DNA of 32,000 nt from Candidatus Saccharimonadota bacterium. Its GTDB lineage: Bacteria; Patescibacteriota; Gracilibacteria; BD1-5; UBA6164. Below are positions 3,001-31,668 of the stretch, piece after piece. How positions within the stretch are numbered: the first letter of the stretch is position 1; each line of letters starts with the position of its first letter. The notes under the pieces were generated by a model that saw only the letters and a list, made by a program, of their open reading frames with translations, did not search any database and was not told the DNA's origin. Location: the NCBI GenBank assembly GCA_004563595.2, contig CP042461.1:390001-422000 (forward strand), read 5' to 3'. The translations under genes and the position numbers were made by a program.

Positions 3001-6000
3001 CAACATCTCAATTGCCTGTATGATTAACATTTTCAAATACTGGTCTTCTTTCATGAACACTAGGAGAAACATGAATATTTAATATTGAAGTAGTTGTAAA
3101 TGACTCTGATAGTCCAGTATCACAAGTTATAGAAAATTTCACTCTTGTTGTAAGTCCACCAGAGATTTGTAATGATGGGATAGATAACGATGGGAATGGA
3201 AAAATAGACTGTGCAGATTATGCTTGTAGTGACTGATGTAGTCAACTACTGGTTGATTTCTGAGATAGCGCAGTAAATGATGTATTTAATTTCACTGATT
3301 GGAACAATGTATTTAAAGATGACTATACAGGGTACTATAATCAATGAATGACAATCACTTCAGGAACAAATGGAAACTATAACTATCAATGAGTCTCAGG
3401 TCCATCAATGGAGTTTGCAGAATGAGATAGAGTTTTAGTGAGATGGTACAATGACACAGCAGCGGAGGTTACATTTACACCAAGAATAAGTTTTGATGAT
3501 AATGATAGACCAAGTTCGTGAGTAACAGGTACATGGTATTCTATGACGGAATGAACTATAGAAGCCAGTTCGTATTGAATTACAGAATATGAGCTGACAT
3601 CTGGAAGTGCAGGGAATTTTACTTTTGTGAATACAAATGTAAATTACGACAATAGTAGTGAGCTTATTTTAGATAAGATATCTATTATAGATTCCTGATC
3701 AACGTGATCAGGATCAACAGATACTACAGCCCCAATACTTTCAAATGGACTTCCAAACTGAGCACTTTCATCAGGAACAACAAATACAATACTTAGCGTT
3801 TCTACCAATGAGAATGCATTTTGTAAATATTCAACAACTGCAAATACAGTATACTGATCAATGATAAATACATTTGCAACAACATGAGTACAAACACATA
3901 GTGTAAGTATATGAGGACTTACAGATGGAGTATCATATGATTACTATGTTAGGTGTATAGATTGAAGTGGGAACGAAAATACTTCGGATTATGCGATTAG
4001 TTTTTCAGTGGCCACAGCAATTCCAACCTCAGATCCAACTACAAATCCACTTGCATATATGGGAGACTTTGAGTACGTATGATGATTTACTTTTGGTTCA
4101 ACATCAGGAGTATCAGATTTAACCTATACATCAGGAAAATTCGCTATAAATTCTGCTTCGAATTCTATATTTATATGAAGTCATAATTATCAAGATGCGA
4201 TATGAGAGTTTAGTATACCGGCATTATCACTTGATCCAGATTATAATAACTTTAATAAAGCAACACAAGTACAAGATTTTGACCTAATTTTTAATAAAAT
4301 ATCAAATCCAGAGAGTCATGAAACACTATGATGACTTGCTATAATCTGAGCTAATCTACTATTTCATACATATGAATATTATGATGCTGCTTGAGATAAT
4401 GTTTGAACAACATCTATATTAAAAAATATCTCAGATCTAAAAAATTCAATAATAGATGGAATATTTCCACTTGCATGATGAGCACATTTAGTTAGTTGGA
4501 CATCATTAGTTCCAACAGAATGGCAAACCTTTTTATGATGAGACTATATTTCATGATCATCAAGTTCATTCCCTATTAATGGGAGAGCGAGTATGTGACC
4601 AAGTGCCTTTGTATTACAATCAGATGATATTTTGAATGCAACCGATACAAATGTAACTATACCGACTACTAAATTGTTAGATTTTAGTTTAAATAATATA
4701 TTATCAAAAACACCATCATGATGGTCTGCATTTTGAATTTGGGACCAATATAATGCAAATGGAGACAATGATTTATGGACAGAAGAATCTTCAGCAGAGT
4801 ATGGATTTATAATTCCATGAACAAGAACCTATGCAACTATTTGAAATTCATGAATGCATGAAAGTGGATGATGATATAAAATTACTCAAACAGATGGGAC
4901 TTTATGTCCATGACCATGTGCAAATGACCCACTTGATGTATATAACTATATATGGCTATGGGATGTGAATGATTTTTTAGATGTAAAAAATGGACTCAAA
5001 CAAGCATATGAAGTAAAACCATACCAATATGGAAAATTTACTACACCGTTTGATGTAAGATCAAGTGGGACAAGAAAAAACTTAATTTTTTGATGAAGTT
5101 ATGATGATGTATCAAATACATTATATTTAAATTTGAATAAGGCAAATGAGGAGTCGATTTATACATCAACACCAATCATATTAGCCTACAAAATCAATGC
5201 GGTAGTAGATACAACAGCAGCTATACTTTCAAACGGAACTCCAACTGGAGAACAAGCCTGAGGAACAACGAATGTAAATCTCACATTAGATACAGATGAG
5301 AATGCAACATGTAAATATTCTACCGTTGCAAATACAGTATTCACAAGTATGACAAATACATTTACTACGACGTGAAATACATCACATTCTACAAATGTAA
5401 CATGATTAACAGAAGGGAATTCATATACATATTATGTAAGATGTATAGATGGGTATTTGAATGAAACAACAATAGATTACACACTCAATTTTTCAGTAGC
5501 GAACACTCCAGATACAACAGCTCCGATTCTTTCAAATGGAACTCCTAGTGGAGAACAAACATCAGGAACAACAAATGTAAATCTGACATTAGATACTGAT
5601 GAGAACTCTACTTGTAGATATTCAACAAGTGCAAATACAGCATATGCAAGTATGATAAACACTTTTGCTACAACAGGGAATACAACACACACTACAAATA
5701 TTACATGACTCACAGATGCAACATCATATACATATTATGTAAGATGTATCGATACCGTATCAAACGTAAACACAACAAATTACACATTAAGTTTCTCAGT
5801 AGCGAACACTCCAGATACCACAGCTCCAATTCTTTCGAACGGAACTCCAAGTGGAGAACAAGCATCAGGAACAACGAATGTGAACCTGACATTAGATACT
5901 GATGAGAACTCTACTTGTAGATATTCAACAAGTGCAAATACAGCATATGCAAGTATGATAAATACCTTTGCAACGACATGAAATACAAGTCATACAACCA

Positions 6001-8744
6001 ACATAACATGACTCACAGATGCAACATCATATACGTATTATGTAAGATGTATCGACTGATCAAGTAATGAAAACACAACAGACTACACATTAAATTTTTC
6101 TGTAGCGAACACTCCAGACACAACGGCACCAATTCTTTCGAACTGAACTCCAAGTGGAGAACAAGCCTCAGGAACAACGAATGTGAACCTGACATTAGAT
6201 ACAGATGAAAATGCAACCTGTAAATACTCAACAGCAGTAAATACAACGTATGCATCAATGACAGATACCTTTACAACAACCTGAAATACAAGTCATACAA
6301 CCAACATAACATGATTAGCAGATGCAACATCATATACATATTATGTAAGATGTATAGATGGATCAAGTAATGCAACAACAACAGATTATACATTAAACTT
6401 TTCTGTAGCCGTAACTCCAGACACAACAGCTCCAGTACTTTCGAACGGAACACCAAGTGGAGAACAAGCCTCAGGAACAACAAATGTGAATCTCACATTA
6501 GACACAGACGAAAATGCAACCTGTAAATATTGAATAAATTCAAATACTACATACGCATGAATAGGGAATACATTTACAACAACCTGAAATACAACACATA
6601 GTACCAACATAACATGACTGATAGATGGAATATCATATACGTATTACGTAAGATGTATCGACTCAGTATCAAATGTAAATACAACAGACTACACACTGAA
6701 TTTCTCAGTAGCAAATACTCCAGACACAACAGCACCGATTCTTTCGAACGGAACCCCAAGTGGAGAACAAGCCTCAGGAACAAGTAACGTGAATCTGATA
6801 CTCGATACCGATGAAAATGCAACATGTAGATACTCTCCAAATGCAAATACATCATATTGAGCAATGTGAAACACATTTACAACGACATGAAATACAAACC
6901 ATACAACCAACATAACATGACTTACAGATGGAACATCACATACGTATTATATAAGATGTATGGATGGAAACTCTAATGCAACCACAACAGATTATACATT
7001 AAACTTCTCAGTAGCCAATACTCCAGATACATGAGCACCATTTTTAAGTAATGGACTTCCAAACTGAGAACAAGCCTCAGGAACAACAAATGTGAATCTG
7101 ACACTAGATACGAATGAAGCATCAACATGTAAATACTCAACAGTAGTAAATACAACGTATGCATCAATGACAGATACCTTTACAACGACATGAAATACAA
7201 GTCATTCTACAAATGTAACATGACTGACAGATGGAACATCATATACGTATTATGTAAGATGTATAGATGGATCAAATAATGAAACAACCACAGATTACAC
7301 ACTGAACTTTTCAGTAGCAAATGTAGTTGATACCACAGTACCAATACTCTCAAATGGACTTCCAAATGGAGAGCAATCAGCAGGAACAACAAACGTGAAT
7401 CTGACACTAGATACGAACGAAGCATCCACATGTAAATACTCAACCGTAGTAAATACAACATATGCATCAATGACAGATACATTTACAACAGGGACATGAG
7501 GACTGAATCATACAGCAAATGTAACATGACTTACAAACGGAATAAGTTATGCTTACTATGTAAGATGTATAGATGGATCAAGTAATGAAAACACAATAGA
7601 CTATGCTATGAACTTTTCAGTAGCCACTCTGATTGATGTAACAGCACCAGTATTAAGTAATGGACTTCCAAACGGAGAACAAACTGCTGGGACAACGAAT
7701 GTAAATCTGACACTTGATACGAATGAAATATCTACATGTAAATACTCAACAACAGTAAATACAACATATACATCAATGACAGACCTATTTACAACAGCAA
7801 CCTGAGGACTCAATCATACAGCAAATCTTACATGACTTACAGACAGTACAAGTTACACATATTATGTAAGATGTATGGATACCGATTCAAATGAAAATAC
7901 AAGTGACTACACGATTAACTTTTCAGTAGCCACAGCAAGTACAAGTGGATGATGAAGTTCAAGCTGAGGTTGAGGAGGCTGATGAGGAGGTTGAGGATGA
8001 TGAAGTTATATCCCAACCTGTAAAGATGAACAACTCACATGTAAACTGATTCCATGATCAACAACAACATACAAATGGTATGTACAAGAAGAAGTATCAT
8101 GTAAATATGGGAAACTATGATCAATATGTTCAGAGGAAGATGTAATTGATCTTAACAGTGGCTGAACATGAACAGGTACGACTACAGATACTACATGATG
8201 ATGAAGTGTGAAGAAATACCATTCAGAAATGACGATTCTTCAATTAATAGAAAAAAGAGTTGATAAAGTAATAGAACAAAAGGAGAAGGATAATGATGAG
8301 AAAGTAATAGAATACAGAAATACCTTTATCAAAGATGTAGAGAACTATATCTTAGCAAGACAAGCAAAACAAAATACCAGAGAACACAAAGTGAAAATAC
8401 TCGCAACGTTTAAACTCTTTGCAAAAGAATTAAGAAAAGAAAATAACGTTACAAGTTGATGAACAACAGAGACTTGAACAGCAAGTAGTGTAACGACACA
8501 CTTATCAGATAATGATATAGTGAACAAACTCTGAGCAAGACTTGATGCATTAATAGTAAAATACAAGAAGGAGAAAAGTATAAAGGTACTGTTTTTCAAA
8601 ACAAAGTTATTAAAGAATATAGACTCTTATATTCTCACTAAGAAAAACAAAGAGAAGGGAATTAACTACAGGATTAAAATGAAGATATTAAAAAGTAATA
8701 TTGAAAAAACTTATTTAATATTCTTGAAGAGTTTGAAATCTTAA
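3..8744 (+). CDS. Giant modular cell-surface/adhesin-like protein, 5'-truncated by the window edge (at least 2,913 aa with TGA=Gly)
   Basis: Frame 3 stays open from the window edge to TAA at 8742-8744 when TGA is read as Gly. I walked the frame by eye and met no TAA/TAG but many in-frame TGA. Domain order: He_PIG-like Ig domain ([43 protein letters not shown]), a Cys/Asp-rich [17 protein letters not shown] motif, a ~160-aa beta-rich domain, 3 Fn3/Ig-like repeats, and a ~370-aa unknown domain. The He_PIG + Cys motif + 160-aa domain then recur, followed by 1 repeat, a ~395-aa unknown domain, 9 repeats, a poly-Gly linker, a Cys-containing segment and a Lys-rich helical tail. A strong terminator follows. 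Confidence 0.85.
297..374 (+). other. Cys/Asp-rich Ca-binding-like motif, copy 1 ([26 protein letters not shown])
   Basis: Direct translation in the giant ORF frame. A second copy lies at 3168-3239. The CxDGxDNDGxGxxDCxDxxC pattern resembles the acidic Cys-rich repeats common in CPR and archaeal surface proteins. Confidence 0.6.
861..1769 (+). repeat. Three tandem 303-bp (101-aa) Fn3/Ig-like repeats inside the giant ORF
   Basis: Repeat starts ([12 protein letters not shown]) are at 861, 1164 and 1467, exactly 303 nt apart. Consensus: [77 protein letters not shown](K/R)CIDxxxNENTSDYxIxFSVA. Confidence 0.9.
3168..3239 (+). other. Cys/Asp-rich Ca-binding-like motif, copy 2 ([24 protein letters not shown])
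   Basis: Same motif as 297-374. It is again preceded by a He_PIG-like Ig domain (about 2886-3167: [46 protein letters not shown]). It is again followed by a homologous ~160-aa domain (FGDSAxNxVF...W(D/N)xVFxDxYTGYYNQG...NYNYQG). This shows a large module duplication within the ORF. Confidence 0.6.
3720..4022 (+). repeat. Single Fn3/Ig-like 101-aa repeat unit of the giant ORF
   Basis: [98 protein letters not shown]; same family as 861-1769 and 5208-7937. Confidence 0.85.
5208..7937 (+). repeat. Nine tandem Fn3/Ig-like repeats (eight of 303 bp, then one of 306 bp)
   Basis: Repeat-initial GAT/GAC codons are at 5208, 5511, 5814, 6117, 6420, 6723, 7026, 7329 and 7635. Each unit has two conserved Cys (xTC(K/R)YS and YYVRC) and a TGA-encoded Gly in ITGLTDG. 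The many minus-strand ORFs in the supplied track here are antisense artefacts of this array. Confidence 0.92.
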
Positions 8745-8799: not shown

Positions 8800-11052
8800 C
8801 TATGGAGTTATAGTTATATTATCAAGATGAAAAATTGCTTTACTTCACACTGAAAAATCTTTTTCTACTTCAATCTTGAATTCATATGTTCATGCTCATA
8901 ATACTGGACTCAAGTATGTTTGATATGCTGATAATCAAGATGTATCACCTCATTCTCACCAATGCTTAACTTGTACAGAGTCAATATAAAGTTTTGCTCT
9001 TCATAAGAAGAAACTTAATTTATAGTCAAAATTTAGAGTTTGACCTGCGGTTAGTGTTTGGTTAAATATGATATATGTTTTGTCACCTTCTATTAGAAGT
9101 GGATTTTTTATCGCGTAAACTCCATTTGAAGAATCAGTAACTCCTACTCTTGTCCAAGGTGTTTTTGCGGCTCAATCAAAAGTAAATAACTCATATGGGT
9201 TTGAAATTCAGTCTTCAAAATCTAAATCCCATCAGCATCATGCTCATCATCAAATACAACTAAAGTTAAAATTATCTAGAGAGAGATCTGCATGTGCACC
9301 GGAAGCCCACTCTAAATTTATTTTAAATTTGAATTCGTAGTCTCATGGTGGGAGAAGGGATGTAGTATACGCTTGATATGTCCCATTCCCCATTCCACTT
9401 CAGCCCCATTTCTCATACTTTGCTCAATTGATATAAAACTCTGCAGTTCATTGATTATAATCTAATTTATAATCAAAATTAAGTTTTTGAGATTGAGAGA
9501 GTGTTTTATTTAAAGTAATATAGGTAGTTTCTCACTGGTCAAGAGGAGGATTCTTAATCGCATATGTTCCATTTGAAGAATCAGTAACTCTTGTCCATGG
9601 TGTTGTTACATCTCAAGAAAATACAAATATATCAAATGGATTATCAGAAGAATCTTCAAAGTTTAAATCCCATCAGCAAGTTGCTCATCAATCAATACAT
9701 GTTTCATCTATCAATATATTGTCTAAAAATAAATTTGAATATGCTCCAGATGCCCAGTCTACGTACGTTTCAAATTTAAATTCATAATTTCATGCGGGTA
9801 GGAGAGTTGTAGTATATGTTTGGTATGTTCCATTTTGAATTCCACTTCATCACCATTTTTCATATTTGACTCAATTAATGTAAAAACTTGCAGTTCATTC
9901 ATTATAATCTAATTTATAATCGAATGTAAGATTAGCAGCTTTGTTGAGAACCATGTTGTATATGAAAGCAGTTGTTTCGCCCTCTCAAGCAGGGATGTTT
10001 CTTATAGCCTTTGATGCTCAGCTTCAGCTTCAATCTTCAATAATCCAGTCAGAATCTCATTCATAGGTATGTAAACAACTGTTACTTATAAGAGCTCAAG
10101 GTGAAAATCATTCAAATGTACCATCTTCATTTACACAGGTAAGTGGTAAGACATCATTTGATTTTAAAAACGGAGTATTACTTGAACAGTGTAATTGTTT
10201 TCTAAGCAATAGAGCATTTTCTTCTAAATAAAAAGGGTGAATATATCAATCTTGATATTGATCATATTTATTTATACTTTGAAAAATACCTGTTCCGTAA
10301 GATTGTTTTAGACCAGCTTCTAAATTATAGTAATCAACTTCATTTAATGGAGAACAATCCGTTCATTGATATAATAATCTAGGTGTAAAAGGTACTGTTT
10401 CTGAATTAAAGTCTCATTCAATGAAGCTTCAAGGAATAGTTTTCTTTGCAGCAATAACGAAATTGTTATTTTCAACTCAAACTTGAACTTCTTGATCTAC
10501 TCATCTGGTATTGAGTATTAAACTTGGGATAGAAATAATATGAGTTTCTCATCAAGTGCTGGTTCTTAAATATTTTGAGTTATAGTTTCATCAAATATAT
10601 GCAACAACATCAGTTGCTGCGTATATCTGATCTGTAAGGTGATGTTGGATATTCTGACTGAGCTGATTTTCTTCAAAGACTCATGCAATTTCATAATTTT
10701 TTCATGAAGTTGTGACTGAATATGATATTTCACTTCCGAATTTTATATCACTTAAGTCTCCAGCTACATTTATGAGAGACTGTATTCTTTCTCATATTAC
10801 TCATTGTTCCCAAATATCTACTCATGCATAACGAACAGTATTGGAATTTTGAGGTTTCGGATATTTTCCTGCTTGTACCTCATAGAGGTCAAGAGTTTTA
10901 TTTATATTTGAATAATTTGAGATTCTTACACTGTCTCTTGCTTGCCTACTATATCATTGAAATGATACAAAAGCTACTGTTCAAAGTATTGCAAGTATCG
11001 TTATAACAACTATAAGTTCTACAAGGGTAAATCATTTTTTTTGTAGGTTCAT
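8800..11052 (-). CDS. Large type IV pilin/pseudopilin-like protein (750 aa) with three C-terminal beta-sandwich (lectin/CBM/MAM-like) modules
   Basis: The N-terminus MNLQKKG|FTLVELIVVITILAILGTVAFVSFQGY is a class III (prepilin) signal with the cleavage-site Gly, Phe+1 and Glu+5. The Gly-1 codon is TGA. The span of 2253 nt is 751 codons from ATG (11052) to TAG (8800-8802), with no TAA/TAG in frame. Confidence 0.85.
8803..10077 (-). repeat. Three tandem ~133-147-aa modules within the pilin gene
   Basis: Modules span 9679-10077, 9238-9678 and 8803-9237. Shared blocks: CGWDL(N/D)FED...PWTRV(T)DSSNG(T/V)YAIKNP...LNFDYKLDYN(E/Q)GTAxFYINGxKYEKWGGSG...GxYEFKF...LDN. The nucleotide-level period is about 440-450 bp. 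Confidence 0.85.
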
Positions 11053-11112
11053 CAGGTTTGTTTTAAGGAGGTAAATATTTATTTATTTTTTCATAGCATT
11101 TATAATCTTATA

Positions 11113-14650: not shown

Positions 14651-15961
14651 ATGGACTTTAATGTAAACTTTTGAATAAGCATATTCATATTTTTGGCTAC
14701 TTTTCTGACTATTTTTTCAGAAAAGTATAATAGAGCGATTATCGCTTTATTTTGAGCTATGTGTATGGTTTGGGTTGGTCATTATATGTGATTTTATAGT
14801 TTTGAACAAGTATTAGAATCTATAGATTTTAATACTATTTTACTATTATTTTGAATGATGGTAATAGTGACACTTTTAGAAAAAACATGATTTTTTCAGT
14901 ATGTGGCTATTAAGACAGCAAAGAAAACAGGTTGAAATATATGGTTGTTAACCGTATTTTTATGAGCATTGACATCAATACTTTCAATGATTTTGGATAA
15001 CGTAACAACTATTATTTTGATCGTTCCGGTTACTATTATTATAACAAAATTACTAAAAATTAACCCAGTTCCAATTCTATTAGCAGAAGCTATTTTATCT
15101 AATATTGGCTGAGTAGCTACGCTTGTTTGAGATCCTCCTAATATTATGATTTGATCAGCTGCATGATTTAGTTTTAATTCCTTTTTAGTTCACTCATTAC
15201 CAGTGGTGGTCTTGTCTTGGATAGTAGTACTATTTTATTTGAGATTTGCTTTTAGGCGTGATTTTTCTTCAAATACATGTAAGAATTCTGATGCATTACA
15301 AAAGATAGATGAGAATAAATGTATCAAAGATCCATATACTCTAAAAGTTACACTTCTTGTACTTTTGGGTATAGTAATATTGTTTTTTTGTCATGGATAC
15401 TTACAAATCCCAGCTTCATTCATAGCTCTATTTGGAGCTTCATTATTACTTTTTCTTAGTTTTCCAAAAAAAGACCCTTATAATATATTTAAAAAAGTAG
15501 AGTGGTCTGTTATGGTATTTTTTGTATCTTTGTTTGTTCTTGTATGATGACTTGAACATGCCTGAGTCTTGGAAATGCTTGCGAATATGATGATTGAACA
15601 TGCTGCTGATAATATTCTTCTTACAGCTATTATTATTCTTTGGTTATCAGCAATATTATCAGCATTTGTTGATAATATTTCTATGACGGTTGCTATGATT
15701 CCTATTCTGAGTATGTTACAAACAAAATGAATTGATGGGGTAAATATTCTTTGGTGGGCTCTTGTATTTTGAGTTTGATTCTGATGAAATGCAACTCCTA
15801 TTTGATCTACTGCTTGAGTTATTGTAACTGCAAAATCAGGTTCACATAAACATCCTATTACTTTAAAAACTTGGCTTGTTACTGGTTTGCCTGCAGCTAT
15901 TTTATCATTACTGGTTGCTACTTATGCACTCATAGTTTTTTATCCATTTTTTATGGGGTAA
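14651..15961 (+). CDS. Polytopic permease of the ArsB/NhaD (CitMHS-like) ion-transporter superfamily, 436 aa
   Basis: Continuous frame with TGA=Gly; the standard-code ORF 15203-15547 is in frame with it. It is hydrophobic throughout, with blocks LDNVTTIILIVPV, GDPPNIMIGS, FVDNISMTVAMIP and GGNATPIGSTAG typical of this superfamily. The substrate cannot be called. Confidence 0.7.
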
Positions 15962-18540: not shown

Positions 18541-19152
18541 ATGGAAGAAGCAATACGTGGAAAATTTCAAGAACATGCACATTATGGTTTTGTAATACCA
18601 GATGATAGAGAAGAATTTTGAGGGGACTTCTTTGTAAATAAAGATAATATGAAAGATGCAAAAACATGAGATAGAGTTGAGGCAAGACCTATGAAATATG
18701 CTAAATGAAAAAAACCAGAAGCTAAAATTTTAAGAGTACTTACAAACCTACAACCAAAAGTTGCCAAAACAGAGATCGTAGAATGAGTATATTCATGAGG
18801 TGATGGAAATTTTTGATTCATTGATATAGAGTGAGGAGAAAAATGATATTTTGTTTATTGAAAAAAGAAAAATTGAGCAAGAGATGGTGACAGAGTAAAA
18901 GCTGAACTTGTTGACTTTAAATGAAAAAAAGAAGCAATTGTAGTTGAGATTTTAGAATCAGACGAAGAATTGTTGGTATGAAAATATAAAGATAATGATC
19001 AATTTGGTTTTGTTTTACCAGATGATAAAAGTGGTGATATTTTCATTGCTGGTTCAAGAAAATGATGAGCAAGTACATGAGATAGAGTTGAAGTTCAAAT
19101 AATTAAAAGATGAGGAAAAAATCCTGAAGGAGTGGTAAGGAGAATAATGTAA
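18541..19152 (+). CDS. Stand-alone protein of three cold-shock/OB-fold units, paralogous to the RNase R N-terminal region (203 aa)
   Basis: Each of the three units contains xxFGF(V/I)xPDD...D(I/F)F(I/V)...GD(R)VE. Units 2-3 are collinear with residues ~15-150 of the RNase R at 24751 (for example GNFGFIDIEGGEKGYFVYG versus [19 protein letters not shown]). 16 in-frame TGA in 203 codons. It ends at TAA 19150-19152. Confidence 0.75.
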
Positions 19153-19276
19153 GGGGGGATTAATAAATATTGGCTTTTATTTAGAAAAAGAGTATAATGT
19201 TAGATGAATCTAAACAAAGTTTCAAACTCAATCACTTTCTGGAACTTTTAATTAGGTTCAGGATAATAGAGGAAAT

Positions 19277-19681
19277 ATGTACATGCAGACTACTTCGTAT
19301 AGACCTCAAATCAAGTCTACTTTTAAACCCTCTAATTTGGAATTGCCATCCGATTTTCATGTGGATGTAAAAGGAGAGAAATTTCCAAAAGAAGAACATT
19401 TATTTCTTGGAGTCGTATTGGAATATTTAAAAGAAATGGGATATGACTGGTCTCAAAGAATTAATTTCGATGATATAGCATATTCTGGTACTCATAGAAG
19501 CTCGACTATATGTGAACAATATTTTCAATTTATACTTTCAAATAATGAATTAAATTATTGTCCCGATATTGCTGCTACGAGAGATGGTTTTATCACTCAA
19601 GTGCGTATTGAAAGAATTGGAGAGTATTATGTTACTCAGAAATTCATTGATGGAGTGGAACAGTATGTATCTAAAAAATAA
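19277..19681 (+). CDS. Hypothetical protein (134 aa), island ORF A; no in-frame TGA
   Basis: Intact ORF even in the standard code. GAGG lies 4 nt upstream of the ATG, the stop is TAA, and a terminator follows. No family recognised. Confidence 0.6.
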   Translation: MYMQTTSYRPQIKSTFKPSNLELPSDFHVDVKGEKFPKEEHLFLGVVLEYLKEMGYDWSQRINFDDIAYSGTHRSSTICEQYFQFILSNNELNYCPDIAATRDGFITQVRIERIGEYYVTQKFIDGVEQYVSKK

Positions 19682-19715
19682 CCTTTATTATTCATAAAAA
19701 AAGGGGCGCAAAAAA

Positions 19716-19744
19716 AGAACCTAAGAAATTTGGGTTCTTTTTTA
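19716..19744 (+). terminator. Rho-independent terminator after island ORF A
   Basis: Stem AGAACC / GGTTCT with an 11-nt loop, followed by a T-run. Confidence 0.6.
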
Positions 19745-20114
19745 AAGGATCTCTTACATGACTCTTACTTATAATTAATAACCTAGGGAATACATGTTAT
19801 TTATATTGTTTCTATGAAAAAAATAAACATATTGTCTTTTCTATATTGCTCTACTACATGAAATATATACGAACGTAAATTATGTGACTCATACAAAGTA
19901 CCTTAGATAGAGAAGTGGAAAATTTAAAATAGAAAGAATTTAGGGGGATTTATACTTTTTTTCCTTTATTATAGTTTTTGTAGTATGAAAGTGATTCTTT
20001 TAAAAGTTGCGTTTTGTGAAGAATTCTACCAGTATTTTTTTGACAAAATAAAAAAAATAATTAGTATTTTAATACGCTCGTTTTTCTAGATTTCAAAAAA
20101 AAAGGCATTAATAT

Positions 20115-20564
20115 ATGACCACAATTGAAGATCTTATTGATATTCAGACTCGATTTATAAGGCTAGTAAAATTCCAAAGAAAAAAAAATCTTCCAGAGGT
20201 TCTTTATGGAGAAATTCCTTCTTATGAAGAAACTTTAAAAGAAGTATTGCAATCTTGTCAAGAAGCATTATTAGATGTATGTTTTGATAATGATGCTGAA
20301 ATAATAAGGTTATTCTCAGATCTTCATTCTTTATTGGAAGGGGAAAAGAGAAAACATTTTTGTGAAGATTTAGATGACTTGGTTCAGAATATAAAAACTC
20401 TGGCATTTAAGAGGGAAAATAAAGAACGGATTCAGATAAACTTGCATGTGCTAGCTCAAGTCCATAGATCGACCTATGATCAAGAAATAGATACTTACTT
20501 TTTTGAAAGATATAGATCAACTTTTCCTATCGTATTAGTTGTAGCTAGAGAGGAAAGTGAATAA
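20115..20564 (+). CDS. Hypothetical, apparently all-helical protein (149 aa), island ORF B; no in-frame TGA
   Basis: Intact standard-code ORF with a TAA stop and a strong terminator downstream. No family recognised. Confidence 0.6.
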   Translation: MTTIEDLIDIQTRFIRLVKFQRKKNLPEVLYGEIPSYEETLKEVLQSCQEALLDVCFDNDAEIIRLFSDLHSLLEGEKRKHFCEDLDDLVQNIKTLAFKRENKERIQINLHVLAQVHRSTYDQEIDTYFFERYRSTFPIVLVVAREESE

Positions 20565-20620
20565 CTAGCTTCATTGCAAAAAAAATACTATTAAAAGGGC
20601 CTATAGGAGGCTGTCCCAAA

Positions 20621-20649
20621 AAATCCAAACAGAAATGTTTGGATTTTTT
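20621..20649 (+). terminator. Rho-independent terminator after island ORF B
   Basis: Perfect 10-bp stem AATCCAAACA / TGTTTGGATT with a GAAA loop and a T7 tail. Confidence 0.8.
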
Positions 20650-21433
20650 TCGTAGAAAATATAAACCTGATTCCTAAATTATTCTAAAAAAATGAAAGAA
20701 ACTTCCTATTCAAGCTTGAAAATTCATGATTTTCTTTAAATTATGAGCTGAACTTATCAAATCCCACTCAAAAAACAAAAAGAATTAAAGTTTCAACCTT
20801 ATGAGTGAAAAATTCCTGTGTTATATGGCTTAAATTAAAAATATAGAGTAACTGAAGGGCTAGAATTTTCTTTTTCCTGTATTTACCACTATTTAAGATA
20901 TATATAAGGTTTCCTCCCTAATCTTTGTACTATCTGAGAGAAGTAAAGAAGTTAATGCATCATATAATAAAAAATAAAAATTCAGTAGATTACTAAAAGT
21001 AAAAGTAACAATAGAACGCCTACAACAATTATTTTTTTTAGAAAATACTTAATGCTAATATTCTTTTTGTATAACTTAAAAGCATAGTAAGCAATAATTA
21101 TAGTATAAAGAAGTAGAGTAATAATAACAAAACCCGAATTAGTAAACAGATATAGAGGTGTAAGAGGTTCGGGACATACTAATCAAGAATTTACAGAGTG
21201 ATTTGGGGATGATATCATAACATGTACCTTAAGTAATAATAATATAATACTATGGATTTAATATAAAAAACAAAAATGTTATACCTAAAATAGATACCTA
21301 AGAAAAATAAAAACCCTATTGTTAAATTCTCAACTAAAACTAAATAAGAGATATTTACCAGAGACTGATGACTCTGTATTATATGTGAGGAGAGTAGGAG
21401 GATGGAAGTATTTTGAGAATTGATAAATATTTG

Positions 21434-21460
21434 GAAAAATAAAAGAGCCCATGAAGGGCT
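21434..21460 (-). terminator. Rho-independent terminator after island ORF C
   Basis: On the minus strand: GAGCCC TTCAT GGGCTC followed by TTTTATTTTT. Confidence 0.7.
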
Positions 21461-21480
21461 CCATACATACAATATAACTA

Positions 21481-21957
21481 TTAGTAAGGCACATTATGTT
21501 TTATTTTTTCTATTGTGCTATTTAAATCATACGCTGAATGTCTCTCGATTATTGATATATGCATCAATGGTTTCTCCTTACCTAAATATTTAACTAAAAC
21601 ACGACGATTCATATCAGCTTCAATCACGCATTCAGTTCCATGTAATGGAAAAGTGAGTCTTGCAAAATTACGGATATGATTTATCTCAGGCATGTGAAAA
21701 AAAATACCTTGCGTAATTTCTTCTGGCTTTATCTCTACCTTATAATTTTCGGAATATGATAATATGAGTTCCCTCATATCTGATAATAACCCTCTAAATC
21801 TATCTTTGTAAGCAAAGTTTCCTTGTTCTATATTAGTAATTTCTAGAGTAATATCCTTAGTTTTAGAGTTGAAAAAATCCCAAAGTGTATTTTTATCAAT
21901 ACCTGAAATCATACTAGTATGAGCCATAATATTTCCATCATTTGGTTGATACTTCAA
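21481..21957 (-). CDS. Hypothetical protein (158 aa from TTG 21957, or 148 aa from ATG 21927), island ORF C; no in-frame TGA
   Basis: Intact standard-code ORF with a TAA stop and a terminator 20 nt downstream. ATG at 21927 (MAHTSMISGIDKN...) is the more plausible start. Confidence 0.6.
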   Translation of the reverse strand: MKYQPNDGNIMAHTSMISGIDKNTLWDFFNSKTKDITLEITNIEQGNFAYKDRFRGLLSDMRELILSYSENYKVEIKPEEITQGIFFHMPEINHIRNFARLTFPLHGTECVIEADMNRRVLVKYLGKEKPLMHISIIERHSAYDLNSTIEKIKHNVPY

Positions 21958-22290
21958 TTATAAGTTAGTACTAAGTACTCCATAATTAATAGTAATTTAA
22001 TAATACGCATGAAATACAATAAGTCAAAGAAATCCCTAATAAAAATAAAACATGAATTTAACTCAGAAAATATATTTTTACGATTTCATAATCTTAATCA
22101 ATGAGACTAAATTATAACAAAATTTATATATATTTACTACGCACTTGCAATTAACTTAAAATATATATTTTCATATGCGTAAAAAAAAGAATAAACATCA
22201 ACTTTAGGTCCATAGGACTATTAGCAATATTGTTTATTCTTTAATTTTCTTTTAAGCTATTTGTTCATTTTCCCTTATAAAAGGGAATAA

Positions 22291-22375
22291 TGGTACCTAG
22301 AAAGGGAATCGAACCCTCACTCCCGAAGGAAGGGGATTTTGAGTCCCCCGTGTCTACCAATTCCACCATCTAGGC
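22291..22375 (-). tRNA. tRNA-Leu(CAA), type II with long variable arm, CCA encoded
   Basis: Minus-strand sequence: GCCTAGA TG GTGG AATTGGTAGA CAC G GGGGA CTCAAAA TCCCC TTCCTTCGGGAGT GAGGG TTCGATT CCCTT TCTAGGT A CCA. It folds into a cloverleaf with a 7-bp acceptor stem (G1-U72 wobble). The anticodon loop CU-CAA-AA gives anticodon CAA. It has a UUCG-capped variable arm, a GTTCGAWT T-loop and discriminator A. Confidence 0.9.
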
Positions 22376-22426
22376 ATATATGGTGGAGCCCCGTAAAGGG
22401 CCCCATAGAAAATTGAGTGTACTGAG

Positions 22427-22453
22427 ATTATATGCAAAAGTATTTTTTTGCAA
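22427..22453 (-). promoter_or_regulatory. Sigma70-like promoter upstream of tRNA-Leu
   Basis: Minus strand reads TTGCAA (22453-22448), a 15-nt spacer, then TATAAT (22432-22427). This lies about 50 nt upstream of the tRNA 5' end. A short GC-rich hairpin (GCCC CGTAAA GGGC) lies in the leader. Confidence 0.5.
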
Positions 22454-22462
22454 ATTTTACTT

Positions 22463-22497
22463 AAAAAATAAAACCACCCAGGGGATTGGGTGGTTTT
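22463..22497 (-). terminator. Rho-independent terminator directly after island ORF D
   Basis: Minus strand: AAACCACCC AATCCCCT GGGTGGTTT followed by TATTTTTT. The hairpin begins 18 nt after the TGA at 22515-22517. Confidence 0.8.
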
Positions 22498-22514
22498 GAA
22501 TATGCGACCTTATC

Positions 22515-22793
22515 TCAATATCGACTACATTTTATGTCTAATACAAGATTGCTAGTTAGATCATACATACCTTCAATTTTCCTAGTAGTATATGATTTAA
22601 CCAGGCTTTCAGCCTTCTCTATATCGACTGCTAATATAGTTGTCTCATCGAGTTCTTCATTAATACGTTTTAACTTATTTTCTGGATCATCAAGACTATA
22701 ACTTGTGGAACAGCTATAATATATAAGATCATCCTGATTATCATCACAACTTATTAAAAGTAGAGATGAGATTAAAATAAAGAATATTCTCAT
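22515..22793 (-). CDS. Small putative lipoprotein (92 aa), island ORF D; ends at TGA
   Basis: MRIFFILISSLLLIS|C is a signal peptide plus lipobox-like LLISC. There is no internal TGA. The terminal codon is TGA (22515-22517). If it is read as Gly, the ORF runs 18 more codons through the terminator hairpin to TAA at 22461-22463. Confidence 0.6.
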   Translation of the reverse strand: MRIFFILISSLLLISCDDNQDDLIYYSCSTSYSLDDPENKLKRINEELDETTILAVDIEKAESLVKSYTTRKIEGMYDLTSNLVLDIKCSRY

Positions 22794-22818
22794 ATTTTTT
22801 CTCTTTTATTTTTGTTTT

Positions 22819-23256
22819 TTAGCTCTGAACAAGGTTTATTTTTTTTAAAATATCGGTCCATTTTATTACAAGTTTATCAAAAATTATAGGATCGTCGTCA
22901 GAGATTATACTGTTTGTATCTTTTTGATCCAAATATACATCATTTATCTTGATTTCAATTTTTCTAAATTTTCGGTGATAGAGAATCGTTATACTTATAT
23001 AACCTTCTGGCAAACAACGATTCATTATAGAATCAAAATCATTTATTTTGAAGCTAAAATGGTATTGATCTATAGAGCTTATCTCAAATGCATAGCATTT
23101 TGGATGATCGAGCATAATATATTTGTTGTCTTCATCTGCTATATTTGAAGGTTCTCCGTTACTTCCTAACTCAATATCTAATTTTTTGTAATCATCAATA
23201 GCTATTGTAATGCTTTCACGGAACTTTAATAATAGAGCTTTGTCTACTTCATCCAT
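22819..23256 (-). CDS. Hypothetical protein (145 aa), island ORF E; no in-frame TGA
   Basis: Intact standard-code ORF with AGGAAG about 10 nt upstream of the ATG and a TAA stop. Only 25 nt separate it from ORF D, so the two probably form a small operon. Confidence 0.6.
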   Translation of the reverse strand: MDEVDKALLLKFRESITIAIDDYKKLDIELGSNGEPSNIADEDNKYIMLDHPKCYAFEISSIDQYHFSFKINDFDSIMNRCLPEGYISITILYHRKFRKIEIKINDVYLDQKDTNSIISDDDPIIFDKLVIKWTDILKKINLVQS

Positions 23257-23384
23257 AATTTTACTTCTTCCTAGTGGAACTTATTAAAACAGCATGTTTC
23301 AATTTCAAGTAATCAACTAAAGTATATTACTTATAATGTTTTCGTTTCTAATGTCAAATTTTGTAGGCTGGTTTTTTTGTAATC

Positions 23385-23418
23385 AAAAAACCACTCGATG
23401 ATGACATCGTGTGGTTTT
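23385..23418 (-). terminator. Rho-independent terminator after island ORF F
   Basis: Hairpin CCACTCGAT / ATCGTGTGG (one mismatch), flanked by an A6 run and a T5 run, so it can work on either strand. Confidence 0.55.
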
Positions 23419-23440
23419 TAAGTATTGCTTATAACGACAA

Positions 23441-23965
23441 CTAATTGCATAATAAACCATCAACCTGTTTTGCTTTTATTTTATGATTTTTATTTTTGTT
23501 TTTTTCGAGAAAATTAGCATCATCCATGAAAAAATTTTCAGCTTCTAATGCATTTATTTGTCCACTTCTAGTGTCAAATAGATAATTTCTTAACTCATAA
23601 CCAAGAGCTTCGCAGCTAGGTTTATCACGAATTATTTTTGGAAAAAGAAAATCAAGAGCTTTTTTATCTCGTGTTCTCCCAGTCCAAGGTACGCGGGTTT
23701 TTCTTGCAGGTATAATCTTAAAATCAGATATCAAGCCAGCATCATTTTTTATATATCTTACTCTCCATTTATTTGGATTATCTTTGCGGATAGCTATTCG
23801 TTTCCCGCGCTCATATAAAAATGTTACTAGATCCTGAAAATTAGAATCATGAGAACGGTACCGCGAGTTTTTTATTTCGTAAAATACATCTGGATGATTC
23901 AAATATATTTGCGCTAATGTTTGTGAGTGTATATCATCAAAACTAACAATTTCTCGAAAGTCCAT
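23441..23965 (-). CDS. Hypothetical basic protein (174 aa), island ORF F; no in-frame TGA
   Basis: Intact standard-code ORF with GAGGA about 9 nt upstream of the ATG and a TAG stop. It uses CGN Arg codons and CpG (for example ACCGCGAG, CCCGCGC, TACGCGGG on the plus strand), which I rarely saw in flanking genes. No family recognised. Confidence 0.6.
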   Translation of the reverse strand: MDFREIVSFDDIHSQTLAQIYLNHPDVFYEIKNSRYRSHDSNFQDLVTFLYERGKRIAIRKDNPNKWRVRYIKNDAGLISDFKIIPARKTRVPWTGRTRDKKALDFLFPKIIRDKPSCEALGYELRNYLFDTRSGQINALEAENFFMDDANFLEKNKNKNHKIKAKQVDGLLCN

Positions 23966-24045
23966 ATCCTACATCCTCTGTTTAGAAAAACAAACTATGT
24001 AATATCTTGTATACTCAGAATTCACTTGATGTCAAAAAATAAGGA

Positions 24046-24079
24046 TCAAAAAAACTGAGGGACTACATACCTCCTCAGT
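24046..24079 (-). terminator. Rho-independent terminator after island ORF G
   Basis: Stem CTGAGG / CCTCAG with a 12-nt loop. A-run on one side and T-run on the other. Confidence 0.65.
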
Positions 24080-24108
24080 TTTTAAATACCTAATCTAAGA
24101 ATACTCTG

Positions 24109-24549
24109 TTACCAGAATTTCTTCAATTTAAGTATTGATTTTTCAATATCACTATACAATTCTGGAGAGAGAAAAGTTTTTTTCTCATCCCAAGACATAA
24201 GGTGACCATTGATTCTTACATTTACTTTTTTTGTGCAATAATTATAGGAGAGTCTTATAAATGAATTCGATCCTTGAATTGATGTATAAGGAAAAACAAA
24301 AATGAATCTAAAGTAACATCTTTTACCAAAAAGATAGTTTGGAGCTATTATTGTGTATGAATCTGTTTTATTTTGAAACGCTTCAGATATATCTGTTGTA
24401 AGATATTTACTGATTCCTACTTGCATAACATTTTTAGGAATTGAAGCAATTTCATTTAGCTCAGGAATATTTTGTTTTACTTGTGTTGTTTTACCTTCCA
24501 GTTTGTTATTAACTGGTACTTCAGGGAGGAGTAATTCTCTATATGTCAT
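24109..24549 (-). CDS. Hypothetical protein (146 aa), island ORF G; no in-frame TGA
   Basis: Intact standard-code ORF with GGAGA 7 nt upstream of the ATG and a TAA stop, followed by a terminator. Confidence 0.6.
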   Translation of the reverse strand: MTYRELLLPEVPVNNKLEGKTTQVKQNIPELNEIASIPKNVMQVGISKYLTTDISEAFQNKTDSYTIIAPNYLFGKRCYFRFIFVFPYTSIQGSNSFIRLSYNYCTKKVNVRINGHLMSWDEKKTFLSPELYSDIEKSILKLKKFW

Positions 24550-24609
24550 TTTTTTCTCCAGCCTATTTTTTTACAATACCATTAACGCAAAATGCATTAA
24601 TTCCTAGTC

Positions 24610-24638
24610 TTGTAAAAATATTGCACAACGTTTATAAT
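24610..24638 (+). promoter_or_regulatory. Sigma70-like promoter upstream of rnr
   Basis: TTGTAA (24610-24615), a 17-nt spacer, then TATAAT (24633-24638), about 110 nt upstream of the rnr ATG. Confidence 0.5.
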
Positions 24639-24750
24639 ATTTTATTAAATAATGTCAATTTTTTTTGTAAAAGAAAAAATTATAAACTATTTTCTTGGAA
24701 AATATAAGTAAGCAAGTACAATAAAAGCTAATTATTAATAGAAGAAAAAA

Positions 24751-26709
24751 ATGATAGAAAAAACCAAAAATAAAGAGCTGTGAGAAAATGAAATTATCTG
24801 AATATATGCGCAATGAAAATGAGATTTTTGATTTGTTGATGTGGAATGACGTGAGAAAGGTTATTTTGTTTTTTGAAGAAATTCTTTGAATGCAATGACT
24901 TGAGATAAAGTTTTTGCCACTGTAAAAGTATTTAAATGAAAGGAAGAAGCAGAAATAAAAAAAGTTCTGACAAGAAGAAAAGAACCAATTGTATGAGTTT
25001 TTAATGACTCATGAAGATTTGGTTTTGTTGCACCAAATGACCCATCATTTAAAAAAGATATATTTATTCCATGATCAAAAGCTCTAAAAGCAAAAGACGG
25101 TGAGATAGTAGCTGTAGAAGTGCTGAGCTGGGAAGGGAGGTCACCTGAATGAAAGGTTGTAAAAGTTTTATGAAAACCATGAGATAAATGAGTTGATGTG
25201 CTTGGGCTTGCTGTTGAATACGGAGCAAGAATGTGATTTGGATGAGCTATTAGGGAGGAACTTGAAAAAATACAGAAACCAGTTTCAATTAAAGATATCA
25301 ATAAAAGGAAAGATTTAAGAAAATTATTCACTATTACAATTGATTGAGAAGACTCAAAGGATCTTGATGATGCTGTGAGTGTTGAAAAAACTTCAAAAGG
25401 GAATTATGTACTCTCTGTTCATATTGCTGATGTTGCTCATTATGTAAAAGAAGGTCATGCAATTGATAAAGAAGCTTTGAGGAGATGAACTTCTATTTAC
25501 CTTGTAGATCAAGTGATTCCTATGCTTCCTAAAGAGCTTTCAAATGGTTTATGTAGCCTGAATCCAAATGAAGATAAGCTGACTCTTACATGTGAGATAG
25601 AGATTAATTCTGCATGACATATTGTAAATACGAATGTTTATGAATCTGTGATCAAGAGTGACTTTAGAATGACTTATAAAGAGGTTGATGAAATAATAGA
25701 ATCTAAGCAAGAGGTTGAAGAATGAAATACGCTCCTTTTCGGATGAATTATCTCAAAACAGCTCATTTCAATGCTTCAGGATTCTGAGAAATTAAGAGAT
25801 ATTCTTGCTCTTCATAAAAAATCACTTGGGGTATTGGAGTTTGATTTTCCTGAAACAAAAATAATTGTTGATAAAGATGGAAATCCAACAGAATTCAAAA
25901 AATATGAGAGATATAATTCAAATAAAATCATTGAAGAATTTATGGTCATGGCAAACGAAGCCATTTCAAGGAAATTTTCAGATATTCCATTCTTGTACAG
26001 AGTCCATCCAAAACCAAGCGAAGAGGATGTAGAAAAACTACAAAAAAACCTGGCAATTTTTTCATATACTCTTCCAAAAAAAGATAAAGTAAGCTCAAAA
26101 GATTTTGCTGTGATTCTGAATGAAATCAAGAATGATGCACGTGAAAAACTGCTCAGTAAAATGGTGTTAAGAAGTCTTACAAAAGCGATATATTCAGATG
26201 AAAGAGAATGACACTTTGGTCTCGCTCTAGATTATTATAGTCACTTTACTTCACCTATTAGAAGATATCCTGACCTACAAATACATAGAATTATAAAAGA
26301 AAAGCTTCATAAAAGGCTAGATAAGGGAAGAATAGGTCATTATAAACTTATTTTACCAAAAGTTGCGAATAAAACATCAGATTTAGAAGTAAAAGCTGAG
26401 AAACTTTCTTATAAAATTCAAGATCTGATGGCTGTAAAATATATGAAAAACAAGGTTGGGGAACAATTTGATGCTCATATCTCATGAGCAATCCAGCATT
26501 GAGTTTTTGTAGAGCTTGATAATACAATCGAATGATTTGTAGAGCTTAACGAGAAGTTCTGACCTTCAAATTTTGTGTTTGATGCTGATATGATGGAAAT
26601 GAAAAGCTCAATCTCACAAGTTAAATATTCTATATGAGATTCAGTAAAAGTTGAGCTTATAAAAGTTGACCCAAAATTACTCCGTCTAGATTTTGCATTG
26701 GTTCTCTAA
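24751..26709 (+). CDS. rnr: Ribonuclease R (3'-5' exoribonuclease, RNB family), 652 aa
   Basis: Two N-terminal CSD/OB units, then an RNB domain: [85 protein letters not shown]-terminal S1 domain follows ([20 protein letters not shown]). The frame-1 ORF opens after TAG 24739-24741, starts at ATG 24751 and stops at TAA 26707-26709. About 19 TGA fall in the first ~195 codons. Confidence 0.92.
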
Positions 26710-29766: not shown

Positions 29767-31668
29767 TTATGAGTTGTTACTTTTGTTCTCAACAAGAATC
29801 TTTTCTCATTTTTCATTTATTTGAAAAAACTTTTGTTCTCAAGTATTTTCATCTAATTCACATAGAATAACCTGGTTCCTTCATAACTCTTTTGCTTTAT
29901 ACACAGCACTATCTGAACGTCACATAGCATTATTTGCCTTTAATTCTTTGGCTTCACTAGGGGTTGATATCTTATCTTTTGAGTTATGAATTTCTATATC
30001 ATGTTCTCATCTTATTGGATGCATATATCATACTCATACACTAATTGTAAGAGAGCCTTTTGTTCCGGCAAATGAGAATTCAGTATCTTCAAATTTTTGT
30101 CTAAGTCTTTCAGCAACCTTTAGTACGTCTCAGTCTTCAATAATAAGTACTAATTCTTCTCATCAATACCTAAATGCTCAGTCAGTTGGTCTGAGAGTAT
30201 TATGTATGATTGCTCAAGCATCTCTAAGTGCATCGTCTCATCATTCATGTCAAAATGTATCATTGACCTTCTTAAAGAAGTCTATATCTACAAATATAAC
30301 ACCAATATTTTTATTTTTTCTATTTGCTGTTTCGCTTGCTTTAATTATTTCTTCATTAAAGGCTCTTCTGTTACTCAGTTTTGTAAGAGGATCAATAGTA
30401 GCTAACTTTTGTAATTCTTTATTATCATTTGAAAAACGACTTAATAAAGTTGCTGTGACTGAAGTAGCATTTTCTTTTAAAAATTGAGAGATAAGTTTTT
30501 CTCAAGTATTATTTATGTTTAAAGCCATGAGTAGTATTTGATAAGACTCAGGTTCTAATGTGAGTTGAGGAACTTTGTTATTAATTGCTTTATAGAGTTG
30601 AGTGAGAGTAAAAATATATGAAGGAGGAGTATTGTCTGAGTCAGAATTATTAATGTGATTTGCAATTCAATATATAGCACTATTCAGGTATTTGTAATCT
30701 GTTCAATTTTCTAGGTTATAGTTTTCTATAACTGTCGTAACTGCAGTAAGAGTTTCTTTAATATCGTTTTCTCAGTAATCTAGATTAAGTTTTGTAAGTA
30801 GAGCACCTTTATTGATCCAAAGTTCTGCTTTTGGTATATCTACATTAACCTCTTTTCATGCATTCATGCCAGATAACGCTTTGTGTGATTTTTCAATAAG
30901 TTGAAGAAGTTCATCTGTTGAAGCCCTTATATCTTCAATGCTTGAGTTTTTTTCACTGATTTGAGTGCTGTGACGATTGTCTAAGTGAAATAATTGAGAT
31001 AACAATTGGATTCTATTATTTTTATCAAGGCTATTATCTTTACTTGATATATGTATTAAATATCAAAATAATTTTCTACAAAAAGAAACCATTCATAAAT
31101 AATTGTCGATAAGCCTATCGCTCTTTGAGTAAGGTATTAATAAATTATTTATTATTTCAAACATGTGAGTGAATTCTTTGTGTAGATTAGAAAAGAATTC
31201 ATGATCGACAGAATCTTTGTGTTCTATAACTTGTGTAAAGAATTTAGTTTTTTCTAATAAAAATTCTTGTAAAACAGTAAAATCTCAATAATGTAATTCT
31301 GTTATTATTTCATTGAGGGATAATTCATGATTTTTCCCTAGTCACATTAATGGAAACAAGTATGATAAATCTTCTTGCGTATGATCGTCATCTGCTATCT
31401 GGATACAATTTTTAACTAAAGTTGATAAAACTTCCATGTCTCTATGAACAAGTCAATTACTTGTGATGTTTAATTCAGAGGAGCTGAATATTTTTCTTAA
31501 TAGTTCCAGTTGATTCATCTTAGAATTATCACAATTTTCAACTTGATTTAATACTGATTTTGAAACATGGCATGTTACTGCTTCTAAACTAGATATTGTG
31601 TCGATAGGAGATGTTACCTCATCTCCTATTTCTTTTCATATTAGTATATGATTTCATTCATTACTCAT
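29767..31668 (-). CDS. GGDEF-domain protein (putative diguanylate cyclase) with a long helical N-terminal region, 633 aa
   Basis: C-terminal domain: DPLTKLSNRRAFNEEI, IFVDIDFFKKVNDTFGHEGGDDALRDAG, RYGGEELVLII (signature GGEEL; both Gly are TGA at 30160-30165), ISVGVG, SDSAVYKAKELGRNQV. The ~400-aa N-terminal part has no obvious TM segment or known sensor motif. 1902 nt in frame from ATG 31668 to TAA 29767-29769. Confidence 0.88.

Follow-up and report, generated by a model that had tools for sequence, protein, structure and literature searches.

Genes and features of the locus

The window, the whole 32-kb stretch of DNA analyzed here, contains a 5.6-kb island of seven ORFs that lies on both flanks of the only tRNA gene in the stretch (Table 1). 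The ORFs, designated A to G, are maximal frames bounded by TAA and TAG only, and they were therefore not picked for the absence of TGA.

Table 1. Features of the island and of the 3' end of ORF D, in window coordinates. L001 is a contig from a related genome.
Feature	Position	Strand	Description
Whole TGA-free island	19153..24741	both	5.6 kb; between the OB-fold gene (18541-19152) and rnr (from ~24742-24751)
ORF A	19277..19681	plus	134 aa, TGA-free, TAA end; common to L001 and L012; omega 0.46
2.6-kb segment	19701..22288	both	3' side of tRNA-Leu; carries ORFs B and C; missing from L001
ORF B	20115-20564	plus	TGA-free; in the 2.6-kb segment missing from L001
ORF C	21481-21957	minus	TGA-free; terminator 21462..21444; in the 2.6-kb segment missing from L001
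tRNA-Leu(CAA)	22291..22375	minus	landmark with island on both flanks; only tRNA in the window
Promoter-like site for tRNA-Leu	22427..22454	minus	TTTGCA-16-TATAAT; identical in L001
Intrinsic-terminator-like hairpin and T-run	22461..22497	minus	stems 22497-22488 and 22479-22470, loop 6-8 nt; end of T-run overlaps TAA
Putative read-through tail of ORF D	22461..22514	minus	17 codons DKVAYSKPPNPLGGFIF, then TAA 22463..22461
TGA of ORF D	22515..22517	minus	putative ancestral stop; Gly codon in host; sole in-frame TGA of the seven island ORFs
ORF D core	22518..22793	minus	92-codon predicted lipoprotein, MRIFFILISSLLLISC...IKCSRY; TGA excluded
ORF E	22819..23256	minus	145 aa, TGA-free, TAA end; 25 nt upstream of ORF D
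ORF F	23441..23965	minus	174 aa, TGA-free, TAG end
ORF G	24109..24549	minus	146 aa, TGA-free, TAA end

ORF D starts with an ATG at 22793 on the minus strand and reaches a TGA at 22517..22515 after 92 codons, where the minus strand reads aaa tgt agt cga tat TGA. Beyond this codon, the frame continues as gat aag gtc gca tat tca aaa cca ccc aat ccc ctg ggt ggt ttt att ttt TAA. Reading TGA as glycine adds GDKVAYSKPPNPLGGFIF to the protein, 18 residues that include the glycine from the TGA itself, and the public gene call for the protein (P0001) is 110 aa long. An earlier note on this DNA had placed the TGA at 22515-22517 and the TAA at 22461-22463, with a read-through of 18 codons; these coordinates and this reading are correct by sequence. 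The N-terminus, M-R-IFFILISSLLL-I-S-C16, has a signal peptide and agrees with the lipobox pattern [LVI][ASTVI][GAS]C. A TTGACA-16-TATAAG site was read by eye upstream of ORF E (~23357-23330), and ORFs E and D probably form one transcription unit.

Pfam, PHROG and PADLOC gave no family match for ORF D and no significant match for any other island ORF. Homologues of ORF D were sought by a word-index search of 5.8 billion proteins and by an exhaustive HMMER search of 1.84 billion cluster representatives, each of which returned only its own protein and one other, P0002. The AlphaFold2 model (pLDDT 35) is uninformative on the tail. No family or homologue was found for ORF F, and the search with ORF E recovered only itself. 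Alignment of ORFs E and D against genome and metagenome contigs yielded no relatives, nor did alignment of ORFs F and E against the viral contigs of IMG/VR; the sole match in the GenBank phage and plasmid collections was the tRNA. Searches of the island found no integrase domain and no phage, plasmid or defence families, and no att-like direct repeats or duplicated tRNA end were found around it. None of the searches traced an island ORF to a standard-code donor or homologue. The 2.6-kb segment (19701-22288) also includes ~900 nt without a convincing ORF. A possible two-helix membrane ORF at 20952-21257 (minus), MISSPNHSVNS-TGA-LVCPEPL...LLLLLLLVIY-TGA-IFIFYYMMH-TAA, has two in-frame TGA codons, the second of which lies 10 codons before the TAA.

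Past the TGA of ORF D lies a hairpin, AAAACCACCC-AATCCC(CT)-GGGTGGTTTT, followed by ATTTTTT, with 11 pairs of which 5 are G-C. It ranks first among the terminator-like sites of the whole 32-kb window, folds at -20 kcal/mol (z = -2.9) and occurs once in the window. The gap from the TGA to the stem is 17-18 nt, and the TAA of ORF C stands 18 nt from its own hairpin (21462..21444), matching this geometry. The strong terminator at a stop-like distance of 18 nt that the earlier note had described is thus borne out. The hairpin lies 17-18 nt past the TGA, but it falls inside the translated region if the TAA used by the host is the stop. Its structure and T-run suggest that it ends transcription. Directly 3' of it stand the promoter-like site and tRNA-Leu(CAA), and a ribosome traversing the hairpin could weaken termination and let transcription proceed into the tRNA gene. 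The two strongest G+C-rich terminator-like hairpins in the 32 kb are both of island genes, ORFs D and C; matches in host regions lie mostly within host ORFs (e.g., 31603-31630 and 15424-15439), and all are far weaker. The leader that separates the tRNA-Leu promoter from the mature 5' end of the tRNA contains a second hairpin, GGGGCCC-TTTAC-GGGGCTCC (22385-22404, minus), which is present in L001 with small indels.

The seven island ORFs (19277-24549) have no in-frame TGA among 998 sense codons. Between 11 and 20 would be expected from composition and ~48 from host usage, giving a probability of zero of 2e-5 to 2e-21, and the +1 and +2 frames of the island contain 13 and 67 TGA triplets. The island proteins contain 3.1% glycine, always encoded by GGN, as compared to 8.2% in host genes. 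For amino acids other than glycine, synonymous usage in the island is indistinguishable from that of the host. All six ORFs other than ORF D end in TAA or TAG, as had been noted before. The TGA of ORF D carries little weight by itself. Its presence within the last 18 codons has a chance of ~0.2-0.6, depending on the model, and is not significant; an open frame past the TGA is expected with p ~0.33 for the window and 0.22 for the tail in L001; and the absence of TGA from the core is weak evidence because the core has just one other glycine codon. What exceeds chance is the context, the complete lack of in-frame TGA across the island, rather than the TGA of ORF D alone.

Genetic code of the host

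The host decodes TGA as glycine (code 25). In 13 host ORFs, TGA accounts for 391 of 8156 codons (4.8%), as compared to 275 GGN codons, and thus for 59% of glycine codons. It occupies conserved glycines in the GNSGGP motif of HtrA, in the Walker A motif of RadA (GEPGIGKST) and in the Walker A motif of PilB. The Pfam family Trypsin_2 scores 104.5 bits when TGA is translated as glycine and 41.2 bits when it is translated as tryptophan. These scores and the TGA codons at conserved glycines rule out code 4, in which TGA encodes tryptophan. With TAA and TAG as the only stops, long ORFs extend across the window, whereas the longest stop-to-stop frame under code 11 is 185 aa. The largest (3-8744, plus), which is cut by the window start, has at least 2914 codons, of which 126 are TGA. 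Next to it is a 760-aa pilin-like protein (8800-11082, minus) with internal repeats and, at its N-terminus, a type IV pilin motif. The relatives found in the searches carry the label Gracilibacteria. The glycine assignment made in the earlier note is upheld by the codon share, the motif glycines and the Pfam scores. Under code 25, TGA cannot terminate translation efficiently here. CGA and CGG have been reported as reassigned to tryptophan in Absconditabacteria (PMC8629427). The arginine of the KCSR motif near the end of the ORF D core is encoded by CGA in the window (22524-22526, minus) and by AGA in L001 (575-577), which fits CGA as an arginine codon in this lineage.

The locus in related genomes

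The homologue P0002 (112 aa) is encoded on L001, a 6-kb JGI contig from a code-25 genome. Host genes on L001 share ~83% DNA identity with those of the window, with dS of 0.87-1.12 and omega of 0.03-0.14. As in the window, L001 carries ORF E, ORF D, the hairpin, the promoter, tRNA-Leu and ORF A, and the order ORF E, ORF D, tRNA-Leu, ORF A, OB-fold gene, radA, htrA is common to both. Misassembly was rejected, because L001 has this order independently. On the 3' side of its tRNA, L001 lacks window positions 19701-22288 and has just 63 nt and a terminator. A DUF559 gene lies between radA and the OB-fold gene in L001 (2080-2647) and in L012, a contig from the same species; the window is without it.

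For ORFs A, E and D, omega between the two genomes is 0.46, 0.41 and 0.35 (Fisher p ≤ 0.003), at dS near that of host genes, and ORF E is 62% identical to its counterpart. The value for ORF D refers to the core (Fisher p = 0.001); over codons 1-31, omega is 0.17 (with the core, Fisher p ≤ 0.004). These ratios indicate that ORFs A, D and E are genuine genes under purifying selection in both genomes. P0002 keeps the signal peptide, a lipobox with identical L-I-S-C, Cys28, Cys89 and the sequence IKCSR, the last encoded by differing codons (Ser, AGT in the window and TCG in L001; Arg, CGA and AGA).

At its 3' end, the L001 copy reads IKCSRRTKS-TGA-SHNIKLLGQVIKSKPPETLGGFIF-TAA, in which JGI rendered the TGA as W. 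ORF D of L001 therefore also has exactly one in-frame TGA, located five codons past KCSR and 38 nt ahead of the shared hairpin, and the next stop follows 24 codons on, as compared to 18 codons in the window. The TGA positions differ between the two genomes. The window TGA can fall near a GGA glycine codon of L001 (LLG-QV) in MAFFT and BLASTP alignments. It stands opposite this GGA in an in-frame DNA alignment and opposite TGG in a better-scoring alignment shifted by one base. Because the DNA alignment of these two 3' ends is ambiguous, we do not claim positional homology of the two TGA codons.

More distant Gracilibacteria, represented by contigs L010 and L003, have radA, the OB-fold gene, a small ORF, tRNA-Leu and rnr at this site. 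The tRNA and rnr are ~130 nt apart there, and the hairpin is missing. As these genomes have only the small ORF and the tRNA between the OB-fold gene and rnr, ORFs D-G are an insertion. A 36-nt tRNA pattern identified nine loci in genome contigs, none with island genes, and these served as empty-site controls; a 44-nt tRNA pattern had no match in the metagenome collection. L011, a close relative as judged by the OB-fold gene, has neither the tRNA nor the island. L012 is 99.9% identical to L001 until just beyond ORF A, after which a TGA-rich rve-family transposase stands in place of the tRNA (L012 4486-7645). This has the appearance of either an IS-mediated variant or a break in the assembly.

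The gene upstream of the island (18541-19152, plus) encodes a stand-alone 203-aa protein that consists solely of RNase R-type N-terminal OB/CSD domains and lies near a full-length rnr (24742-26709, plus). Paralogy links the N-terminus of the OB-fold protein to that of the rnr product (repeat D1, 72% identity). The stand-alone gene is common across Gracilibacteria (160 proteins at E ≤ 1e-30), and in relatives the tRNA-Leu alone separates it from rnr. The copies in L010 (2761-3378) and L003 (4835-5452) have 0-1 TGA among 27 glycine codons, whereas TGA makes up about a third to 40% of glycine codons in neighbouring genes. The window copy has 16 TGA. The L010 and L003 copies represent lineage-specific TGA avoidance in a host gene.

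Origin of the TGA in ORF D

We propose, with moderate confidence, that this TGA first served as the stop of a standard-code-compatible gene and that the present host decodes it as glycine. The small lipoprotein gene would have arisen where TGA terminates, with the TGA at 22515-22517 as its stop, and would belong to a standard-code-compatible island inserted on both sides of tRNA-Leu(CAA). Host ribosomes would read this codon as glycine and translate 17 further codons, across what was once the 3' UTR and across the hairpin. Translation would end where the T-run runs into the TAA, giving a product of 110 aa rather than 92 aa. Because TGA encodes glycine in this host, the ORF D product is expected to be this extended form, and the cell probably makes it. 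The tail would be tolerated rather than designed.

That the gene was shaped under the standard code, as the earlier note had suggested, is supported in part, by the TGA-free island, its absence from distant relatives and the stop-like spacing. One TGA stop among seven is what is expected of an AT-rich standard-code source. In P0002, too, a lone TGA lies shortly past KCSR and before the hairpin. The suggestion needs amending in that the gene, judging by its divergence, is not a recent import; the purifying selection in two diverged genomes suggests that the tailed protein has long been tolerated. The same note had left the outcome in the host as either an extended protein or mis-expression. The 110-aa gene call agrees with the former, and mis-expression is unlikely because the extended protein has evidently been tolerated for so long. 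Several observations count against a relic stop. A neutral relic TGA should have decayed over dS ~1, yet each genome retains one; only two ORF D sequences are available, with TGA codons at unlike positions; both genomes share the frame and the final TAA; the searches recovered no standard-code donor or homologue for the island ORFs; and the usage of non-glycine codons in the island is host-like.

The combination of purifying selection with a lack of TGA is puzzling. Despite host-like divergence, all 21 glycine codons in the shared island orthologues (ORFs A, D and E) are GGN, whereas conserved glycine sites of host genes have switched between TGA and GGN at 25 of 117 positions. Under a two-state model, this outcome has P ≤ 0.005 if TGA has been neutral in the island since the split of the window and L001 lineages. 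Separate acquisition, a host switching rate that does not apply to the island, or continuing selection against TGA could each account for it. The last of these is the core of another reading, which we regard as unlikely: the island still belongs to mobile DNA, or did so until lately, and standard-code cells express it too; selection keeps TGA out of its genes; and the TGA of ORF D ends translation in a standard-code host but is read as glycine, with the TAA as a backup stop, in a code-25 host. The purifying selection on ORFs A, D and E at host-like dS, the 21 GGN codons and the host-like usage of other codons are all as this reading would have them, as is the retention in both genomes of a TGA just ahead of the terminator. 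Liu et al. likewise suggest a wider host range for TGA-free phages (PMC10746230). However, integrases, att repeats, phage genes and plasmid genes were not found in or around the island, the viral, phage and plasmid collections searched contain no similar DNA, and the backup stop is 18-24 codons off rather than adjacent. The statistic itself comprises ~21 codons and assumes the switching rate of host genes, and separate acquisition by each lineage would give an equal pattern. We consider it doubtful that continuing selection still bars TGA and that island genes must also work under the standard code, for example in an element that moves between a code-25 episymbiont and standard-code bacteria.

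The TGA could also be an ordinary glycine codon of a true 110-aa protein, with a functional C-terminus ending in SKPP..LGGFIF and a hairpin inside the coding region. TGA is the commonest glycine codon of the host, the window TGA can be placed near a GGA of L001, as described above, and the scarcity of glycine in the core makes its lack of TGA weak evidence. The earlier note had held that conservation of the tail at the protein level in code-25 homologues would mark it as the real C-terminus. P0002 does share the frame, the TAA and SKPP..LGGFIF, that is, 11 of the last 13 residues, with only two loop codons different. Yet the identity is confined to the hairpin stems and the T-run, onto which SKPP and LGGFIF map exactly. 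In these elements, 0 of 30 nt are changed, without a single synonymous change, whereas 4 of 8 loop bases differ and the two loop codons are changed nonsynonymously (NP in the window, ET in L001). A conserved peptide would be expected to show synonymous variation, and its absence is the pattern that a conserved terminator predicts. Conservation in the gene is lowest between KCSR and the hairpin, a stretch that is unalignable and differs in length by 30 nt. Divisibility of this difference by three has a chance of ~1/3 and would also suit a selected coding tail. Because the identities are those of stems and T-run, the loop changes are nonsynonymous and the upstream stretch is unalignable, the conservation is better explained at the DNA or RNA level, as that of a terminator. 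As a comparison of two sequences, in which no compensatory changes are seen, it cannot settle between a coding and a terminator origin. A strong terminator with a T-run is atypical within a coding region. In addition, the conserved Cys28 and Cys89 bracket a domain that ends at KCSR, and an ordinary glycine codon would leave the lack of TGA in 998 island codons unexplained. We therefore judge this reading improbable.

It is scarcely credible that ORF D is not a real gene and its TGA meaningless: the lack of Pfam, PHROG and PADLOC matches, the unusable AlphaFold model and the single homologue would allow it, but the conserved signal peptide and lipobox, the low omega, an IKCSR maintained by unlike serine and arginine codons, and the position of the gene 25 nt past ORF E and ahead of a terminator all contradict it.

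Comparison with known systems

The nearest precedent for the island, read as the source of an original TGA stop in ORF D, is the set of code-11-compatible phages of Gracilibacteria. Liu, Jaffe, Chen, Bor and Banfield (mBio 2023; PMC10746230) reported phages predicted for Gracilibacteria/Absconditabacteria that are without in-frame TGA. Where these phages use TGA as a stop, alternative stops lie close by, so that a later TAA or TAG ends code-25 translation (PMC10746230). The island resembles them in lacking TGA (0 of 998 codons) beside a TGA-dense host (391 of 8156). Unlike these phages, it is a 5.6-kb chromosomal, tRNA-adjacent segment without phage hallmark genes or a match to phage records; no significant PHROG, IMG/VR or GenBank phage match was found except for the tRNA. 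The integrated prophages in the same study are all TGA-dense (PMC10746230). In addition, their backup stops are in close proximity to the TGA, whereas in ORF D the next stop lies 18 codons on (24 in L001) and beyond the terminator. According to Shulgina and Eddy (PMC8629427), RF2 and the standard code persist in some genomes labelled Gracilibacteria, and AT-rich standard-code donors therefore exist close by.

Genomic islands linked to tRNA genes offer a second comparison. As in such islands, foreign-looking genes abut a tRNA and are missing from related genomes, and the 3' end of the tRNA shows strain-level variation, given that L001 lacks the 2.6-kb segment. In contrast to them, no integrase, duplicated tRNA end or flanking direct repeats were found here, and the genes flank the tRNA on either side.

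Stop-codon-recoded phages in standard-code hosts have reportedly been described by Borges et al., whose work is compared here as recounted in PMC10746230. The island would share with them a mismatch between the code in which its genes arose and that of the cell. The direction is different, however. Those phages have fewer stops than their hosts and need suppressor tRNAs or release factors, whereas the island genes have more stops than their host and need nothing; the island contains no code-switch machinery. ORF D also resembles genes with tandem or backup stops, in that a downstream in-frame stop bounds the length of read-through. Unlike stop read-through elsewhere, its extension would be constitutive, because TGA is a sense codon in the host, and it would be encoded by the stem-loop and T-run of a terminator.

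Implications

A change of the genetic code is thought to be a barrier to gene flow, and this locus appears to show the crossing of that barrier at the resolution of a single codon. Genes without in-frame TGA work unchanged in a cell in which TGA encodes glycine. For a gene that ends in TGA, the cost would be a short tail to the next TAA, and this cost seems to have been borne over a long period. What was reported for code-11-compatible Gracilibacteria phages is extended by this locus to a chromosomal island that is not phage-like. If TGA-freedom has persisted after integration, something beyond ancestry would have to exclude TGA. Should continuing selection be responsible, the TGA of ORF D would terminate translation in one cell type and encode glycine, with the TAA as backup, in the other, and the island would be a chromosomal, long-lived case of dual-code-compatible genes.
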